A stretch of DNA of 64,000 bases from a bacterium (GTDB lineage Bacteria; Patescibacteriota; Minisyncoccia; Phycocordibacterales; Zambryskibacteraceae): positions 1 to 64,000 of the forward strand of contig JAUSGI010000002.1 of assembly GCA_030649135.1 (NCBI GenBank), read 5' to 3'. Under the pieces are notes generated by a model. It had not been told where the DNA came from, did not search any database, and worked only from the letters and a program-made list of their open reading frames with translations. Made by a program: the position numbers and the translations under genes. Below, in pieces: positions 6,635-63,394 of this stretch (the first letter of the stretch is position 1; each line of letters opens with the position of its first letter).

Positions 6635-7594
6635 TTAAAAAGTTTTGCTGATGACATTGCCAAATTCTTTGACTAGTTTGTCATCCAGTACGGAAACCGG
6701 ATATACCTTCGAGCTAACTTTTTTTAAGAGCTTGAGCTTTTTGCCCTGTTCTTCTTTTGTTAGAGTGTCAACTTTGGTAAGGACAACAACTTCGGTCTTC
6801 TTCAACATGTTCTTATTATAGAGCCCAAGTTCGTTTCGAACCACTTTATAAGCGTTCAGGGGATCCTCTTCCTCGGCAGAAACACAATGGACGAGAGCCT
6901 TGGTACGTTCGATATGGCGCAAAAACTTATGGCCCAAACCCTTGCCTTTGGCCGCTCCCTCCAAGAGACCGGGAATGTCGGCCAGGATAAGTCCATAAAA
7001 GTCTCCTAAACTTGGTTCAACGGTAGTAAATGGAAAGTTGCCCACTTTGGATTGAGCACTAGTGAGAGCATTCAAGAGACTTGATTTGCCGGCATTGGGC
7101 AAGCCTACAATACCCACATCGACGACCAAGAGAAGCTCAATGTGAAAATCTGCCTCTTCCCCCGAAACACCGGGAGTAGACTGTTTGGGGCGAATATTGG
7201 TTGAACCCTTAAAATGATTGTTTCCCAATCCCCCTCTTCCTCCACGAAGAAGTAACACCTTTTCACCATCTTTCAGAAGTTCCGTGGCATACCCTGTGGT
7301 GAGATTCGTTAGGCGTGAGCCGACAGGTAGTTTTATGACAACATCTTTCCCCACTCCGCCCTGCTTGAGGTCTTTAGCTCCATCCTCTCCACGTCCCGCT
7401 TCAAACTTCCCCACATTGCGATAGGCCGATAGAATACCGATATCCCGTACAGCGAGAGCATGAACATCGCCCCCTTTGCCACCGTTACCACCAGAGGGAC
7501 CGCCATGGTCTTTGCCTTTCTCATGTCGCCAGCGCACTACACCGTCGCCGCCGCGACCAGCTTTAAAGTGAAGTGTTAATTCGTCTATAAACAT
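6635..7594 (-). CDS. obg: GTPase Obg
   Basis: N-terminal Gly-rich Obg fold (GRGGDGVVRWRHEKGKDHGGPSGGNGGKGGDV); G-domain GLPNAGKSSLLNALTSA. Confidence 0.92.
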   Translation of the reverse strand: MFIDELTLHFKAGRGGDGVVRWRHEKGKDHGGPSGGNGGKGGDVHALAVRDIGILSAYRNVGKFEAGRGEDGAKDLKQGGVGKDVVIKLPVGSRLTNLTTGYATELLKDGEKVLLLRGGRGGLGNNHFKGSTNIRPKQSTPGVSGEEADFHIELLLVVDVGIVGLPNAGKSSLLNALTSAQSKVGNFPFTTVEPSLGDFYGLILADIPGLLEGAAKGKGLGHKFLRHIERTKALVHCVSAEEEDPLNAYKVVRNELGLYNKNMLKKTEVVVLTKVDTLTKEEQGKKLKLLKKVSSKVYPVSVLDDKLVKEFGNVISKTF

Positions 7595-9401: not shown

Positions 9402-11867
9402 TCAGATGCTAGCTCCGTGGCACTTCTTGTATTTCTTGCCGCTACCGCAAGGGCATGGGTCGTTTCTACCAACTTCGGCTTTGGGAGAAACGGCTGAACG
9501 TGAGGTATCTGAGAGTGTCGTGGCCTCTACTGCTATGGGAGCCATCTTAAAAGAAGTGAGCGCTTCCAGATTGATAGCAATAACAAATTCGGCAATCTGC
9601 CGAGCAATGGACACTTCCATATCTCTGAAAAATCTTAAACCATCTTTCTTGTACTCCACCAGAGGGTCGCGTTGACCATAGGCACGCAAATTCACGCTCC
9701 CGCGCAGATATTCCATCATCTCCAAGTGGTCAACCCAGAACAAGTCTATGGTCTGGAGAATCACCCTCCGCAGAACCTCGACTACTTCTGGAGTGTCAAG
9801 GGACATCTGTGACATTTTATTATTTACCTTATCCGTCATCTCTTGGTCTAAATGCTCCGCTACCTCGACTAAATATCCTTTGATTTCAGCCTGACCACCG
9901 ACCAAAACTTTGCGACGGTGGCCATAAATAATACCCCGTTGAAAATTTAGTACGTCATCGAACTCGAGCACATGTTTCCTAGCATCAAAGTTGAAACCCT
10001 CTATTTTTTCTTGCGCCTTTTCAAGAGAGTTCGTTATAAGCTTGTTTTCTATGGGTTCGTCTTCGGGTATGTTGAAGCGTCCCATCATCTTTTTAATGGC
10101 ATCCACGGCAAAAATACGCATCAAAGAATCCTCCAGAGAAACAAAAAACTGCGTCTCACCCGGGTCTCCTTGCCTACCGGAGCGTCCACGTAACTGATTA
10201 TCTATACGCCGAGCATCATGCCGCTCGGTACCAAGGACAAACAGACCGCCAAGTGTCCTAATGTCTTCATAAGCCCCCCGGGCAGCGGGATTACCGCCAA
10301 GCTTAATATCAATGCCACGACCGGCCATATTGGTGGCAAGCGTTACAGCCCCTCGCTTACCGGCTTGAGCGATAATCTCGCCCTCTCGTTCATGGTTCTT
10401 GGCGTTTAAGATTTCATGTTTGATTCCCTCGTTCTTTAAATAAGTCGAAAGAAGTTCATTGTGTTCTATAGAGACCGTACCGATGAGAACCGGCTGGCCT
10501 ATTTTGCTCAACTCTCCGACTTTTTTAGCCACCGCTTTCATCTTGCCGGCTTGCGTTTGGAAAATCTGATCGCCGTGGTCCGTGCGGGCCACCGGTTTAT
10601 TGGTCGGGATAACAAAAGTTTCTAAGCCATAAACTTTATAAAATTCTTCTTTGGAAGTAACAGCGGTGCCGGTCATGCCGGAGAGCTTCCGGTACATACG
10701 AAAATAATTTTGGAAAGTGATACTGGCGAAAGTGCGGCTCTCTTCCTTAATACCCACGCCCTCCTTGGCCTCTATGGCTTGATGCAAACCTTCCGACCAT
10801 CTCCTGCCGGGTTGCAGACGACCGGTAAAGGCATCCACGATGACCACCTCGTTATCTTTGACTACATATTCTTTGTCTCGCTGATACAGAGACTTGGCCC
10901 TGACAGCTGTCTCAAGATGATGCACATATTTGACGCCGCCTTCGGCGTAAATATTTTCGATTCCCAAGGATTTCTCGGCCTTATTTAACCCATCATCCGT
11001 CAAAGAAATGGCGCGCAGCTTTTCGTCAACTGTAAAATCTGGACCCTCTTCAAGCCCCCGAGCAATCTTGGCAAATTTTTCATATAGTTCTCCGGCAGTA
11101 CCGGTATTGCCGGAAATAATGAGAGGCGTCCGCGCCTCGTCAATCAGAATGGAGTCTATTTCGTCAACAATAGCGTAATGGTAGTCCCGTTGGGAAAGAT
11201 GTTCCTTATTATAAAGCAGGTTATCACGCAGATAATCGAAACCAAATTCATTGTTGGTACCATAGGTAATATCCGCCCGATAAGCCTCTTGCTTGGTGGC
11301 CGGCCTCAAGAACTCATGAACCACGCGGAAAGAACCAAGTTCATCACGTTCTTTATCTTTCTCCATATGAGACTCGTCATAAATAAAAGACTCCGCATGA
11401 TTGAGCACACCCACGGACAGGCCAAGATAAGCATAAATTTCTCCCATCCAGACAGCGTCACGGCGGGAGAGGTGGTCATTAACCGTCACTATATGTACCC
11501 CCTTACTCATAAGAGCGACGAGGTAAGCAGGTAGTGTCGCTACCAAGGTCTTACCTTCTCCCGTTTTCATTTCCGCGATTCCACCTTTGTAGAGAGCAAT
11601 GCCACCAAGAAGCTGGACATCAAAATGTCTTTGCCCGAGGGTACGCTTAGCCGCCTCCCGCACAACGGCAAAAGCTTCCGGCAATATATCGTCCAGAGTT
11701 TCACCTTTAGCGATACGGCTTCTGAATTCGGTAGTTTGGGCCTTCAGCTCTGCAGGCGAGAGATTCTCTAGCGAAGATTCGAGCGCATTCGTGCGCTCGA
11801 CAATCGGTTTCCAAGACTTAAGTAATTTCTCCTCGGGAGTACCGAAAAGGCTCTTAAAAAAGGCCAT
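9402..11867 (-). CDS. secA: Preprotein translocase ATPase SecA
   Basis: Walker A GEGKT in the DEAD motor; full-length SecA architecture; C-terminal zinc-binding [14 protein letters not shown]. Confidence 0.95.
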
Positions 11868-57184: not shown

Positions 57185-57529
57185 GTGGAGGGCCTTGTGA
57201 AATACGATTTGAGCCTGTTTTTTGTCGATTCTACAGCCCCCTTCAAGTGTTGCTCAAATCGTAATTCAATATCATTAGTATACCCGACATAAAAATTTCC
57301 ATCTTTTTGACTCTGTAGAACATAGACGTAGAATTTTTCATCAAATACAGACATGATATTGAATTATTTCACTGGGCAAGTCCAACGATGGAAAAAACCC
57401 AAAATAGGGTCACTTTTATCGACTTTCTGGGTGATCACCAGCAGTTTCATTGGATTTCCTCGCTCCTATTTTCTTATATGCGGAAGGTTAAACCTTGCGT
57501 ATTGGTCTTACTTCCATCATAATTCTAGT

Positions 57530-58195
57530 ATGACACGCCCAATTATATTATCAATCGGAGAATTTTATCACATTTATAATCGTGGCACTGAAAAAAGAAA
57601 GATTTTTTTATCCAAACATGACTACGAACGTTTTATAGCTCTTCTCTATCTTTGTAACTCCACTATCTCCGTCCGTATAGACATGCGACGCAAATCTTTA
57701 GATGAAACCCTCGATACTGACCGTGATAAGAATCTGGTAGATATTGGTAGCTACTGTTTAATGCCCAACCACTTTCATATTCTACTTAAAGAAAGAGTTG
57801 AAAATGGTATTAGCCTATTTATGCAAAAATTAACTACGGCTTATACTATGTATTTCAATAAAAAATACGAACGTAACGGATCTCTTTTCCAAGGAACTTT
57901 TAAGGCAGAGCATGCGGATAAAGACAGTTACTTGAAATATCTATTCGCATATATTCACTTAAATCCAGTCAAACTGATTGAACCCGAATGGAAGAAGGTG
58001 GGTATCAAAAACCGCACAAATGCTAAGCAGTTTCTGAGAAATTACCCTTATTCTAGTTATTTTGAATATACCGGAATCGACAGAAAATGGAAGACTATTC
58101 TAACGCCTAAGGCGTTTCCAGACTATTTTGATACTACCGATGGCTTTCAGAAAATGATTGATTACTGGCTTGAGTTTAGTTCTGAACAATCCTAG
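57530..58195 (+). mobile_element. IS200-like/REP-associated tyrosine transposase (Y1 HUH) gene, copy 1
   Basis: YHIYNRG, the HUH motif CLMPNHFHILLK, GSLFQGTFK and the catalytic-Tyr region YLFAYIHLNP. Flanked by AAGGTT-A/T-AACCTT palindromes (57485-57499; 58206-58220) and a 33-bp direct repeat (57408-57440; 58228-58260). The track's longer N-terminus (57353) reads as junk. Confidence 0.75.
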
Positions 58196-58266
58196 TGTAG
58201 TGCGTAAGGTTTAACCTTGTTCAAAAAGGTCATTTTTATCGACTTTCTGGGTAACTACCAATAATC

Positions 58267-59550
58267 TCATTGAGTTGGTGTGTCTGGGGTCTTTTCCGCA
58301 TTTTCAGTTTGCTCTTCTTTTTTCATAAGTTCAAATGCTTGGCCGAGATATCTCAATACATGGTGCCCGACAAGATAATGGAATAGGAGGCCAACCAGTC
58401 CGGCAAGAATGACGAGCAAGAGGAGATAAACGAGATTGTCTTTGATAAATTTGCTAATAAGCGATGACGACGAGACTGCCGCTGTGACATCTCTGATATT
58501 GCCGGCCTTATCGAAGACTCGCACCATAACGTTTAAGTCGCCGCGAGCGAGCGGTATCTGAAAAGGACTCTCCGTTTGGACAAAAACGGGGGAGACGGTA
58601 ACTGGTTGGCTTTTATCAATTATTCCGACCTCATAATAATCCACTCCCGACAGATTATCCGTAGTAAAGAAAGAGATTATCGACCGTTCGACCAAATTCA
58701 CCGCTGCCAACAAATAACTAACTTCCGGTTTGAAGTCTGCCGGCGGGACAGTGTCAATTCTTATCAGAAAATGCCCAGTCGTCCCCCAGACTCCATTTTT
58801 ATTGGCTTTAATATGAAAATACCATAAGCCATCGGCCAAACTTTCAAACGCTTCTGAAGTCTCGTTGGCAGTAATGGAGTTCTCTGGGATTGTGGATGGT
58901 TTATCATCCAAAATATAACTAAATCCCGAAACGCCGGCATCCCGATCCCATGAGATTACCGGACTGTCATTGTTGTACCACTCACCCTGGAACGGATGGG
59001 TCTCCGAGAAGACCTTCACCCCTTCCGGAGCCTTCGGCACAATCGCATATTCCGCCCTGCCCAACTCTACTTCGGCTTCCGTACCTTGGCCATCATTCAA
59101 GAGTACTTTTGAATTAGCGCCAAAAGAGACCGTTGCCCAGCCAGTCCTCTTGGCTTTAAAAGTGATTGTCCCCACTAAACCGGAGTTCGTAGTAATACCG
59201 TCCGGTATGACACCGACATAACTGGCCGTACCGCGAGTGTTATCGTAACTTGGCGGTTCCACCCAGACACCGATAATAGAGAGGCCGCTCGACGGTTTTA
59301 TGATTTCCAGCTTATCTTTGTCGAAGTTAACCCTGATTTCAATACCATTGATTTCGGCGCCGTCTGTATCGACTAGAATCGGGATATTGAAGGTTGAGTT
59401 CTCGACAAAGCTGGCGGCACGGGGAGAGAATGAAAGTTCGATTTTCGGAATTAATTGCGAGACATCCAGAGAGACTGTCTCGGCGTATGTATGAGACCAG
59501 ATGAGAGCCGTGAGAACAAACAGTAGAAGTATTCTTGAAATACGTGCCAT
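58267..59550 (-). CDS. Cohesin-domain surface protein with signal peptide and C-terminal TM anchor
   Basis: Signal peptide MARISRILLLFVLTALIWSHTYA. The N-terminal ~140-aa beta domain parallels the next gene (SVGDTFSV... LSF... LQV pattern). A second beta module resembles the 60489 gene. C-terminal TM helix LVYLLLLVILAGLVGLLF followed by a charged tail. Confidence 0.6.
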   Translation of the reverse strand: MARISRILLLFVLTALIWSHTYAETVSLDVSQLIPKIELSFSPRAASFVENSTFNIPILVDTDGAEINGIEIRVNFDKDKLEIIKPSSGLSIIGVWVEPPSYDNTRGTASYVGVIPDGITTNSGLVGTITFKAKRTGWATVSFGANSKVLLNDGQGTEAEVELGRAEYAIVPKAPEGVKVFSETHPFQGEWYNNDSPVISWDRDAGVSGFSYILDDKPSTIPENSITANETSEAFESLADGLWYFHIKANKNGVWGTTGHFLIRIDTVPPADFKPEVSYLLAAVNLVERSIISFFTTDNLSGVDYYEVGIIDKSQPVTVSPVFVQTESPFQIPLARGDLNVMVRVFDKAGNIRDVTAAVSSSSLISKFIKDNLVYLLLLVILAGLVGLLFHYLVGHHVLRYLGQAFELMKKEEQTENAEKTPDTPTQ

Positions 59551-61239: not shown

Positions 61240-62580
61240 CTAGCCAGTCCAATTAAACGCCATTATAGAGAAGTCTACGAGATTGACCTTGCCATCGCCA
61301 TTGATATCAGCACTCTTGGGCGGAGCTGGCCTATTATACCAATAGGCAACAATGGAAAAGTCCACGAGGTTGACACGGCAATCGGCGTTCGCATCTCCTC
61401 GTTTATCGCACTTTTGGGGAGTTTTGGCAAAAAGAATACTGATGTTGCCGACAACGAAAGGCACTGCCAGGCTGTACGGGCTTATCTCATTTGCTTTAGC
61501 AGCTTTCGACTTGGTGCTATGGTCGCCATACTCGAGTGGTGTAGTATCAAAGTTGTAGAGATATATCCCGTTCACATCTGCCGGAGTTTTGGCGAAGAAC
61601 TGCTGGTCGGAATTTATTTGTATTGTTACTTCGCTTTGGTGAGCTACCTGACCGAATATGGTAATGTCATCCCCTTTTCTCACTTGCGATTTATCCACAG
61701 CCACAGTCGGCGCTATGAATATGCCGGTAATATCGGTGGTCACTCCTGCGGTTACGCTCACCGGGAATGTCAATAAAGATGACCTATTACCTTGATTGTC
61801 CTCGCTATATATGGAAAAGAAATAATTGCCGGCAGTCAGATTGGTAAGTGATGCCTGGAAATTGGACGTGGCGTCAGCAATTGTTGTGGCAGACACTTGG
61901 GCATCTTTAAGGATAGTGATGGGTCTTCTCGGATATGCTCGGCCGGAGAAATTGACCCCGCCTGTAGCATAGGTCGTCACGCCTCCTCCACCACCACCAC
62001 CACCCCCACCACCTCCGCCTCCTCCGCCATCATCATCGTCGTCAACCGGTGCGGTGGGGGTAGCGGAAACCTCGGTAGAAGTGGCAATGGTATTATCCAG
62101 AGCATCCAAAACCCTGACAACGAAGTAATATGTGGTGCCGGCAGTAAGCCCCGTGCGCGTGGAAGCAAGTACGTCACCAACATCTGTATAAGTATATGCA
62201 CCGCCGGCAGTAGTGGACTGACCCACCGAATATCCTCCTACCGCCCAGCCAGTCGAGGCATCCGCGGTCGTCCAAGTGAGTGACACTTGCTCGGCACCGG
62301 CGGTGGCCGTCACGGCAGGAGTGGAAACAAACGGAAAATAAAGAAAGCCACCAAAAAGTTGATAGAGACTGTTGGTGGTTGAAGTGCCAATCGCCATTTG
62401 GGAAATGACTGCGTTTAGTCTGAAACTAGTGGAAGTAGAGTATCCGCCGGAAAATAACACGGGGTTAGAGACCGTATAAGTATCGGAAGAAAAATCCTGC
62501 GCATAGGCGGCGTTGACGGTGAGAAAAAATAGAAAACATAAACTTAGAAGCGTTAGAAATCGTACTTGTGGAAAAAACAT
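61240..62580 (-). CDS. Secreted dockerin-containing protein with FN3/Ig-like domains and an Asp5-Gly16 linker
   Basis: Signal peptide. The C-terminus carries two Ca-binding dockerin repeats, DANADCRVNLVDFSIVA and DINGDGKVNLVDFSIMA. An in-frame (GGN)16 tract at 61985-62040 encodes the flexible linker. Confidence 0.65.
   Translation of the reverse strand: MFFPQVRFLTLLSLCFLFFLTVNAAYAQDFSSDTYTVSNPVLFSGGYSTSTSFRLNAVISQMAIGTSTTNSLYQLFGGFLYFPFVSTPAVTATAGAEQVSLTWTTADASTGWAVGGYSVGQSTTAGGAYTYTDVGDVLASTRTGLTAGTTYYFVVRVLDALDNTIATSTEVSATPTAPVDDDDDGGGGGGGGGGGGGGGGVTTYATGGVNFSGRAYPRRPITILKDAQVSATTIADATSNFQASLTNLTAGNYFFSIYSEDNQGNRSSLLTFPVSVTAGVTTDITGIFIAPTVAVDKSQVRKGDDITIFGQVAHQSEVTIQINSDQQFFAKTPADVNGIYLYNFDTTPLEYGDHSTKSKAAKANEISPYSLAVPFVVGNISILFAKTPQKCDKRGDANADCRVNLVDFSIVAYWYNRPAPPKSADINGDGKVNLVDFSIMAFNWTG
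61985..62040 (-). repeat. In-frame trinucleotide (GGN)n/(GAY)n simple-sequence tract encoding D5G16
   Basis: cctccaccaccaccaccacccccaccacctccgcctcctccgccatcatcatcgtcgtc on the plus strand. Confidence 0.8.
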
Positions 62581-62691
62581 ACTAAGTAATTATACAACAT
62601 AGTAACTGTGCAGAATATATAGTACCGAGTACTGAAAGCCGAGAGCTTTAGACTCTCACTAATACTGTATACTTATAGATATCTCCCAAAC

Positions 62692-63360
62692 ATGAGAAAG
62701 GAACCTATCATAACAAACCATTATTATCACATTTATAATCGAGGAGTGGATAAGCGTGACATATTTAGCGATATAAAAGACCTTAAACGTTTTAAAGAAA
62801 GTGTAAAACAGTTCAATCAAGTCGATGGCATAGGTAGCCTGGAACTATATCGCAAATCCGTGAGAGCTTTAGGCTCTCACTTTGAATTGAAATCGAAACC
62901 GATTGTGGATATTGTCGCCTTCTGCATAAATCCTAATCATTTTCATTTTATCTTAAAACAACTGGAGGACGGCGGAATAGCAAAATTCATGCAGAAATTA
63001 CTCGGTGGATACACATATTACTTTAATCAGAGACATGCACGTTCTGGTTCATTATTTCAAGGAACATTCAAGTCTAAACTAATCAACCACGATGACTATT
63101 TTAGAAAAATATTTGCGTATGTAAACCAAAATTATTCTGTTCATAACATACCAAAAAATAAATCAATTTTTATTTTTGCAAGCAATACAGAATACGAGAG
63201 TGGGCATTTTGATTTTGTTTCTAAAATCGAAGGACAGGAAATGTTAAAAATTTTTGGTGGAAAAAATAATCTTAAAAAACACTGCGAAGAAATTATATCT
63301 ATTATTCGAAAAGAACGTGGCAAAACTTCTCTAGAAGAACCAGACGAACTGCCTATGTGA
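62692..63360 (+). mobile_element. IS200-like/REP-associated tyrosine transposase (Y1 HUH) gene, copy 2
   Basis: YHIYNRG, HUH motif INPNHFHFILK, GSLFQGTFK, FAYVNQNY. Flanked by hairpins GAGAGCTTTAGACTCTCAC (62640-62658) and GTGAGAGCCTAAAGCTCTCAC (63360-63380). The latter is the exact reverse complement of an internal copy at 62867-62887. Confidence 0.75.
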
Positions 63361-63394
63361 GTGAGAGCCTAAAGCTCTCACTAAACAAACGATC

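Follow-up and report, generated by a model that had tools for sequence, protein, structure and literature searches.

The RAYT-like gene at 62692-63360 of the window (the whole stretch of DNA analysed here, 64 kb in length) resembles the gene of a domesticated transposase, comes from an ultra-small bacterium of the Patescibacteria and is accompanied by three copies of one palindrome, located just upstream of the start codon, inside the reading frame and at the stop codon. We think it likely, from comparison with homologous loci, that these hairpins are the cognate REP-type palindromes of the encoded RAYT-like nuclease, that gene and palindromes together form a very compact "REPtron", and that the palindromes are copied between their sites. 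The features to which the text refers are the following.

57480-58219, forward strand: the paralogous unit of copy 1, whose gene (57530-58195) has its own flanking palindrome.
62641-62659, forward strand: H1, the upstream REP copy, degenerate in this genome (GAGAGCTTTAGACTCTCAC, loop TTTAG).
62666-62673, forward strand: a candidate -10 promoter element (TG plus TATACT), read from the sequence, 7 nt after H1 and 18 nt before the ATG.
62692-63360, forward strand: copy 2, the RAYT-like Y1 HUH gene, 222 amino acids (open reading frame, Pfam Y1_Tnp, AF2 model).
62860-62881, forward strand: H2, the internal in-frame REP copy, with an 8-bp stem and the loop TTTAG, read as VRALGSH in codons 57-63.
63154-63177, forward strand: an AT-only palindrome (AAAAATAAATCAATTTTTATTTTT) at the H3 position, coding for KNKSIFIF, with a weak fold.
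63360-63382, forward strand: H4, the 3' REP copy, with a 9-bp stem and the loop CTAAA, inverted relative to H1 and H2.

The copy 2 protein matches the Pfam model Y1_Tnp (PF01797) with 35.3 bits (cutoff 23, E 1.4e-8). Its HUH motif occupies codons 83-85 (62938-62946) and reads H83-F-H85, and the catalytic Tyr143 is encoded at 63118-63120; H83, H85, Y143 and N147 are invariant in a 28-sequence homolog alignment (A2). The Tyr motif is YVNQNY, from which the Pro of the class-2 signature Y---NP is missing; the Tyr motif of copy 1 is the canonical YIHLNP. For the AF2 model of the copy 2 protein (pLDDT 79, pTM 0.81), the top Foldseek match is 4er8_A (E 5e-4, TM-target 0.59), the structure of E. coli TnpA-REP bound to a REP hairpin, followed by the TnpA proteins of IS608 and ISDra2. 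A PDB sequence search with the family profile returned no meaningful match. Against the NCBIfam model REP_Tyr_transpos (NF047646, cutoff 80), copy 2 scored 31 bits and copy 1 scored 41.8 bits. Because the copy 2 score falls below the cutoff, the copy 2 protein is placed as a distant RAYT-like member of the TnpA-Y1 superfamily, and the shortfall weighs against a REPtron. The hairpin is best explained as belonging to a RAYT-like single-strand DNA nuclease of the TnpA-Y1 kind, class-2-like, with predicted activity. Homologs number in the thousands, and the named ones belong to Patescibacteria (Nomurabacteria, Paceibacterota and others). Most homologs have about 220 amino acids, and those listed are 60-88% identical to the copy 2 protein.

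The initial annotation had described three hairpins at this gene. Their presence, the in-frame position of the internal one and its exact reverse complementarity to the 3' one all stand, while the coordinates had to be re-mapped by small shifts. The H2 21-mer, GTGAGAGCTTTAGGCTCTCAC, occupies 62860-62880 (earlier given as 62867-62887) and lies in frame 0 of the open reading frame 62692-63360. Its exact reverse complement, the H4 21-mer GTGAGAGCCTAAAGCTCTCAC, occupies 63361-63381 (earlier 63360-63380), and the inverted match extends to 22 nt (62860-81 against 63360-81). The TGA stop codon (63358-63360) adjoins the H4 21-mer, its A being base 1 of the 9-bp stem at 63360-63382. The gap between H1 and the ATG is 32 nt, where 35 had been given. 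With up to three mismatches allowed, a search of the 64 kb window for the 21-mer found only these three sites, and in 100 shuffles the number of such sites expected by chance was 0. As single-stranded DNA, H4 folds with -10.6 kcal/mol (z -7.0) and H2 with -9.5 kcal/mol (z -4.1). H1 folds weakly (-3.3 to -3.5 kcal/mol, z about -1), has no GT foot and carries a C.A mismatch; this degenerate state weighs against a REPtron. The AT-only palindrome at 63154-63177 was considered as a fourth REP copy and rejected, given its different sequence, its weak fold (z -1.5) and its position in a structured and conserved segment of the protein; this genome probably has no REP copy at the H3 position.

That the gene should be the second of two RAYT copies, as it had been labelled, is correct: a paralog with 42% identity lies at 57530-58195. 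Copy 1 has a palindrome different from that of copy 2, found as GGAAGGTTAAACCTTG at 57482-57497 and as GTAAGGTTTAACCTTG at 58204-58219, and no internal palindrome copy is present in its gene. In a screen of the fetched homolog loci, copy-1-like paralogs elsewhere are likewise bracketed, and occasionally interrupted, by palindromes of their own. Paralogs that share a genome and differ in palindrome include L003 and L016, L021 and L025, the trio L020, L059 and L064 (L numbers denote homolog loci), and the two copies in the window.

The layout recurs across the family. A sample of 80 homolog loci was chosen by protein patterns only and then scanned for hairpins. Nearly every locus contains a perfect palindrome specific to that locus (AGATAGAG..CTCTATCT, CCAGTGCC.., ACTTGGAGG.., TGTAGACG.. 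and CAGCGGT.. are examples), and copies of it occupy as many as four conserved positions per locus, H1 to H4. The H1 position lies 12-50 nt upstream of the ATG and holds a locus-specific hairpin in 58 of 69 loci. The H2 position, at reference codons 60-67, is the same loop that holds VRALGSH, and it is kept across 40-88% protein identity. Cognate hairpins at the H3 position, near codon 156, occur in eight distant loci. The H4 position is at or over the stop codon. At 30 of 64 loci this codon falls inside the loop or an arm of the hairpin, and among close homologs it is contained in the REP foot (cagTGAGAG..) or adjoins it (TAGtGAGAG..). Among the 69 loci with a repeated hairpin, 52 have H2, and 40 have H1, H2 and H4 together.

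The internal site was also assessed by a test that does not depend on the repeat, in which perfect stems of at least 7 bp were counted in the H2 window, with 539 equal-sized windows from the same genes as controls. Such a stem is present in the H2 window of 39 of 77 loci (51%) versus 4.3% of the control windows. Where the best upstream hairpin was found independently, its inner 7-nt arm equals that of H2 in 31 of 32 cases; the same holds for the hairpin at the stop codon in 31 of 33, so that the H2 arm matches the flanking hairpins of its own locus in 62 of 65 comparisons overall. By these counts, half to two-thirds of the family have the internal copy at an orthologous site, and it is no accident of this genome. 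A hairpin inside the transposase reading frame had at first been called unusual. In this RAYT-like family an internal copy is the rule, and in-frame REPs are known from subclass 2.4 (PMC6006769).

The internal hairpin is best explained as being kept as a DNA palindrome, with the peptide that it encodes merely tolerated. In the AF2 model this peptide forms the end of a helix and a loop just before the strand that precedes HUH; residues 60-65 are modelled with pLDDT below 50. The peptide varies with the palindrome (VRALGSH, QIESKALSG, QIVPEALSG, FVDVRRLQ and others), and the hairpin is read in all three frames among lineages (21, 17 and 14 loci). Codon choice in H2 is essentially frozen among 16 distinct close homologs (68-88% identity): Leu is TTA in 16 of 16, Ser is TCT in 14 of 14, Ala is GCT in 14 of 14 and Val is GTG in 11 of 11. 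Of 159 other conserved columns, only 4.4% keep to one codon, and Leu columns elsewhere average 4.4 codons. Across loci, three to four Watson-Crick pair types are found at each stem position. Chance, or conservation of VRALGSH at the protein level, is ruled out as the source of the internal hairpin by the shuffles, the control windows and the codon test. The initial annotation had also named what would refute its reading, a palindrome absent elsewhere in the genome together with homologs that encode the same peptide without palindromic DNA; instead, homologs retain a palindrome at this place, and the peptide changes along with it.

Turnover of the palindrome is rapid. Arm identity is 8.5 of 9 within loci versus 3.3 of 9 between loci, and inner arms far outpace the protein in divergence: of 89 pairs of loci whose proteins are 70-79% identical, just 10 have the same inner arm, and identity of that arm averages 3.6 of 7. 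Such low constraint between lineages, combined with identity within the locus, points to copying between sites, since independent selection at each site would not produce that combination. On these comparisons, the palindrome copies evolve in concert at the DNA level. At the mixed locus L025, H4 is of another type with its arms fully compensated, and L034 and L027 are similar; partial arm duplications stand beside some hairpins (L024, L031, L105, L125, L196). Mixed loci and duplications alike fit replacement in progress. Nothing points to the hairpin as a trace of the gene's origin, an idea raised at the outset, and the palindrome turns over much faster than the protein. Homogenisation of the sites could be the work of ordinary short-patch gene conversion rather than being driven by the enzyme.

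The internal copy might instead be a neutral passenger, REPs having landed repeatedly and independently in a permissive loop that acts as an insertion hot spot, with no role and no copying between sites. In-frame REP insertions into loops of many genes are known (PMC3733652, PMC6006769), the H2 peptide of copy 2 lies in a disordered loop, all three frames are used among lineages, and the arm duplications next to H2 in L024, L031 and L105 resemble insertion scars. A third to half of the homologs (L002, L007 and L008, for example) lack H2 or have it in decayed form, which makes it dispensable, and it could be functionally neutral. Independent landing fits poorly, however, with a site that stays at reference codons 60-67 over the full 40-88% range of protein identity, with synonymous positions that are frozen, and with an internal hairpin that is of the locus's current type, by the count of matching arms given above, despite fast turnover. 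We regard the passenger account as unlikely, though deserving of serious attention; it differs from the REPtron account mainly over whether the internal copy has any role.

Whether the palindrome behaves as a REP elsewhere was judged from its distribution. A metagenome scan for the 19-mer GAGAGCTTTAGRCTCTCAC returned 118 stretches with 136 exact matches. Of the matches, 35 are at homologs of the copy 2 gene (8 at H1, 12 at H2 and 15 at H4), and 101 are away from them, 94 in stretches free of a homolog and 7 far from one. The dispersed 19-mer has many unrelated flanks and occurs as singlets and as directly adjacent inverted doublets; one recurrent context without a RAYT gene had no match in an Rfam search. 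REPIN-like doublets are found in the 20 kb flanks of some homologs, where 47 extra copies were counted in 944 kb, concentrated in few genomes. Judging by this distribution, the palindrome appears to be a dispersed, low-copy, REP-type repeat. The early suggestion that the hairpin is REP-like and tied to a RAYT-like gene is borne out by this dispersal and by each paralog and homolog having a palindrome of its own at matching sites. The bracketing expected of a REPtron is present as well, H1 (+) and H4 (-) being inverted around copy 2 with a palindrome specific to this gene. Two observations weigh against a REPtron. In the 64 kb examined there are no dispersed copies, all three being at the gene, and the hairpin foot in the window, AGTGAGAG, reads GTGA rather than GTAG or GTGG, outside a strict GT[AG]G pattern. 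Some related clades do have a GTAG foot (TGTAGACG, GGTAGAGG).

Signals for expression bear on whether the hairpins act as DNA or as RNA. Of 57 homolog loci, 46 have a hexamer between H1 and the ATG that matches TATAAT at 5 of 6 positions or more; the distance from its end to the ATG is exactly 6 nt in 29 loci, and a TG extension is present in 29. The homolog mRNAs would be leaderless or nearly so. A consensus promoter scan did not call the candidate -10 element at 62666-62673, and matches to a -35 element are poor family-wide, mostly 2-4 of 6. The H1 loop was considered as the -35 element and rejected: TTTAGA stands 17 nt from the -10 in few loci only, the spacing in the window is 15 nt, and scores are poor. 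H1 falls in the -35 and spacer zone, upstream of the -10, which would put it outside the transcript. H2 followed by TTTGAATT was flagged by a terminator scan; a role for H2 as an intrinsic terminator or attenuator was rejected, the T-rich tail not being conserved in close homologs.

If the hairpins were mRNA structures, affecting stability, translation or termination, they would be selected as RNA independently of the enzyme. H2 and H4 are indeed within the transcript, and H4 overlaps the stop codon. REPs near stop codons reportedly lower expression in E. coli (Liang, Rudd and Deutscher 2015). Many REPs are, moreover, thought to act as RNA (PMC3733652). Against such a role, H1 has the same sequence yet is probably untranscribed. 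A frequent variant, GAC, is informative as to strand: on the sense strand it gives a C.A mismatch at H1 and H2 and a T.G wobble at the inverted H4, and at H2 a G.T wobble arises solely on the antisense strand. The better-folding strand of the variant therefore follows the orientation of the REP and not the mRNA. The orientation of H2, furthermore, flips between clades, being inverted relative to H1 in 31 loci and the same in 15. Taken together, the strand pattern, the H2 flips and the place of H1 upstream of the -10 favour an element that works at the DNA level; nor would selection on RNA hold the inner stems identical between sites. Selection as RNA seems to us improbable.

A different proposal, made from the sequence of this locus at the start, was that the internal and 3' copies serve as inverted repeats for recombination, allowing the segment 62881-63360 to invert as a switch. 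H2 and H4 are exact 22-nt inverted repeats in the window, and in one population variant, L091 versus L156, a rearrangement has one of its breakpoints within the REP at H1. Split or opposite-strand matches were sought in about 100 homolog loci and none was seen, every locus giving a single collinear match, so the proposal found no support. H2 and H4 point the same way in 31 loci and opposite ways in only 18, some of these calls resting on 3-nt loops, and an inversion would break the reading frame at a point between the N-terminal strand and the HUH core. In the L091 variant, flanks are 100% identical and the stretch from H1 to about codon 70 is replaced by 253 nt carrying the start of an EEP-like gene; this is a replacement rather than an inversion, and there is no hairpin at the second breakpoint. 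REP-associated rearrangement evidently occurs, but as gene disruption. An inversion switch is extremely improbable. The outer pair, H4 and H1, is inverted in 39 loci and has the same orientation in 16.

Several known systems resemble the copy 2 locus in part. According to the survey by Quentin, Siguier, Chandler and Fichant (2018), in-frame REPs within tnpA-REP are a hallmark of subclass 2.4, from Cyanobacteria and Bacteroidetes; the insertions generally lie between HuH and Y in a peripheral region, and some members of subclass 2.8 have them too (PMC6006769). Like subclass 2.4 (Bertels group 4), the copy 2 family has cognate flanking REPs and frame-preserving internal copies, with the inserted peptide at the periphery of the structural model. 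Unlike it, the main internal site of copy 2 lies before HuH (codons 57-63 against 83-85), and the second site of its distant relatives lies after the Tyr, near codon 156. The subclass 2.4 motifs are WQ and YIxNNP, whereas copy 2 has FQ and YVNQNY, which places it outside that subclass as there defined, and the hosts of the copy 2 family are Patescibacteria. Positional orthology of the internal site and its lock-step change with the flanks characterise the copy 2 family; the portion of the survey cited makes no mention of them for subclass 2.4 (PMC6006769).

Subclass 2.1, or TIRYT (Bertels group 1), has the motifs NH[YF]H...FQ...Y[IV]HLNP, which copy 1 fits exactly and copy 2 partly. Length (about 220-240 amino acids), a C-terminal extension, low copy number and divergent paralogs are further likenesses. 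This subclass is reported to be without nearby REP-like sequences (PMC6006769), whereas both paralogs in the window and their relatives are palindrome-flanked and often interrupted; the assignment is by motif comparison only. A search of the literature found no paper linking REP or TnpA-REP with Patescibacteria.

The E. coli REPtron, with TnpA-REP (4er8), is the best fold match and shares HUH, a single Tyr and inverted cognate palindromes that bracket the gene, but sequence identity to copy 2 is only 12%. The REPs of E. coli, unlike the palindromes of copy 2, are imperfect, have a GTAG foot, number in the hundreds and are absent from the inside of the gene. TnpA of IS200/IS605 has the same fold and chemistry, and hairpins on either side of its coding sequence are recognised by the enzyme in single-stranded DNA, as is predicted here. 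Those elements are multi-copy and near-identical, with end hairpins in the same orientation and a Tyr motif Y---Q, whereas the genes in the window are divergent (42% identical), low-copy and of the type Y---N, with flanking hairpins mostly inverted across the family, and so fall outside IS200/IS605. Rickettsia palindromic elements (RPE) and intragenic REPs resemble H2 as short in-frame palindromes translated into extra loop residues (PMC3733652); they sit in unrelated host genes and not in the gene of the enzyme presumed to mobilise them (PMC3733652). Di Nocera et al. (2013) describe in-frame REPs in many genes, as well as REPs overlapping the ends of RAYT genes (PMC3733652). Corneloup et al. 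(2021) showed for a group-3 TnpA-REP enzyme that it matters to cleavage whether the stem is perfect (PMC8266576).

In the REPtron that we favour, H1 would stand just upstream of the -10 element, H2 would form a disordered surface loop between the N-terminal helix and the strand leading to HUH, and H4 would lie over the stop codon. Palindrome copies may be overwritten from one another or from the pool of REPs. The most plausible agent of such copying would be the enzyme itself, through its cut-and-join activity on single-stranded REP hairpins together with hairpin-templated repair. As a likely consequence, the gene would be physically tied to its substrate and would limit its own expression. 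Such self-limitation might come about if the enzyme binds or cleaves its own promoter and gene body, and through the stability of the hairpins H2 (codons 57-63) and H4 (stop codon).

A bolder view takes the in-frame REPs for a built-in self-recognition device, by which the nuclease, acting on hairpins in its own promoter, gene body and stop codon, would set its own expression and rewrite the copies as the REP family changes. In a more extreme version, the loop peptide encoded by the REP could help the protein to recognise the REP. The idea is distinctly doubtful in our estimation. If it were true, the gene would store "master" REP copies, enzyme and substrate could not drift apart, and a new form of cis-coupling between a domesticated transposase and its repeats would be widespread in Patescibacteria.

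An internal REP is not a new principle in itself, in-frame REPs within tnpA-REP genes having been described in 2018 (PMC6006769). REP/RAYT is the best-studied case of a domesticated transposase that lives with its own repeat family, and at stake are the way in which enzyme and repeat stay matched and the way in which the enzyme is restrained. The copy 2 family offers a compact natural experiment on both: hundreds of divergent loci, three fixed sites, one of them translated, all changing in lock-step. Concerted evolution of enzyme and substrate would be directly measurable from the sequences, and the same loci would supply ready-made substrates for biochemistry. If the REPtron reading is right, REPtron-like systems extend to the Patescibacteria and to a group resembling subclass 2.1, which is reported as REP-free.

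Three features of the window lie in or near the two RAYT-like Y1 HUH genes, copy 2 and its 42%-identical paralog, copy 1:

57530-58195: gene of the copy 1 unit, which consists of a hairpin, this gene and another hairpin.
61240-62580, minus strand: gene adjoining copy 2, encoding a secreted-looking protein of 446 aa.
63154-63177: AT-only palindrome AAAAATAAATCAATTTTTATTTTT within copy 2, with a 9-bp stem, coding for KNKSIFIF.

An imperfect direct repeat, each copy about 50 nt long (GGTCAYTTTTATCGACTTTCTGGGT..., at 57403-57456 and 58223-58276), bounds the copy 1 unit on both sides and looks like a duplication made on insertion or movement of the unit; the downstream repeat copy overlaps the 3' end of the minus-strand gene at 58267-59550. 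The product of the gene adjoining copy 2 combines Ig/fn3-like repeats with a C-terminal dockerin domain and has a conspicuous linker, DDDDD-GGGGGGGGGGGGGGGGG. The AT-only palindrome, conserved in the homolog loci L007, L008 and L009, occupies the exact position of the second cognate hairpin that is read in frame in some distant homologs. Its fold is weak, and the protein segment encoded there is structured.

Rearrangement at a hairpin is seen in a pair of metagenomic contigs, L091 (1300-2300) and L156 (150-1100), which are 100% identical on either side of a differing stretch. From the hairpin upstream of the RAYT-like gene as far as about its codon 70, the L156 sequence is replaced in L091 by 253 nt in which an ORF of EEP type (endonuclease/exonuclease/phosphatase-like) begins, MKIITLNIWGG...; the left breakpoint falls inside the palindrome. 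Elsewhere a single hairpin arm is repeated in tandem beside complete hairpins, as in GACTCTCAC-TGCAA-GACTCTCAC-TGCA-GACTCTCAC; examples occur in L125 (from about 11289 onward), at the upstream hairpin of L196 and at the internal hairpins of L024, L031 and L105. Either repeated rounds of cleavage and joining or slippage may have left these repeats as scars.

In some genomes REPIN-like inverted doublets of the locus-specific palindrome, spaced 20-70 nt apart, are dispersed across the 20 kb flanks of the homolog locus; this was seen around L038, L043, L050, L052, L053, L055, L056 and L058, several of which (L038, L043, L053, L055, L056 and L058) have no internal in-frame copy. In L003, whose gene (at 10001 onward) is a 72%-identical homolog, codon 55 is an in-frame TAA directly 5' of the internal hairpin, and judging by this stop codon the gene is probably a pseudogene. 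That internal hairpin carries compensated changes (GAGGG/CCCTC) absent from the upstream copy at the same locus.

One conserved context of the 19-mer, the palindrome of copy 2 as searched in metagenomes, recurs in L083, L084 (e.g. 7037-7096), L086, L100 and about 20 other loci. It reads CCAGAGG-[hairpin]-AC-GGCnnnnnGCC-TTCCTCTG, comprises three stems, and has a tRNA gene, encoded on the other strand, at a distance of about 80 nt. Rfam returned no match for this context; it could represent a structured element not described before, or a terminator within which a REP is nested.

Most of the homologs at L001-L080 have a TATAAT-like -10 element, often TG-extended, that ends exactly 6 nt before the ATG, and most lack a Shine-Dalgarno sequence upstream of the start. 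This combination suggests leaderless transcripts for the RAYT-like gene family in Patescibacteria.
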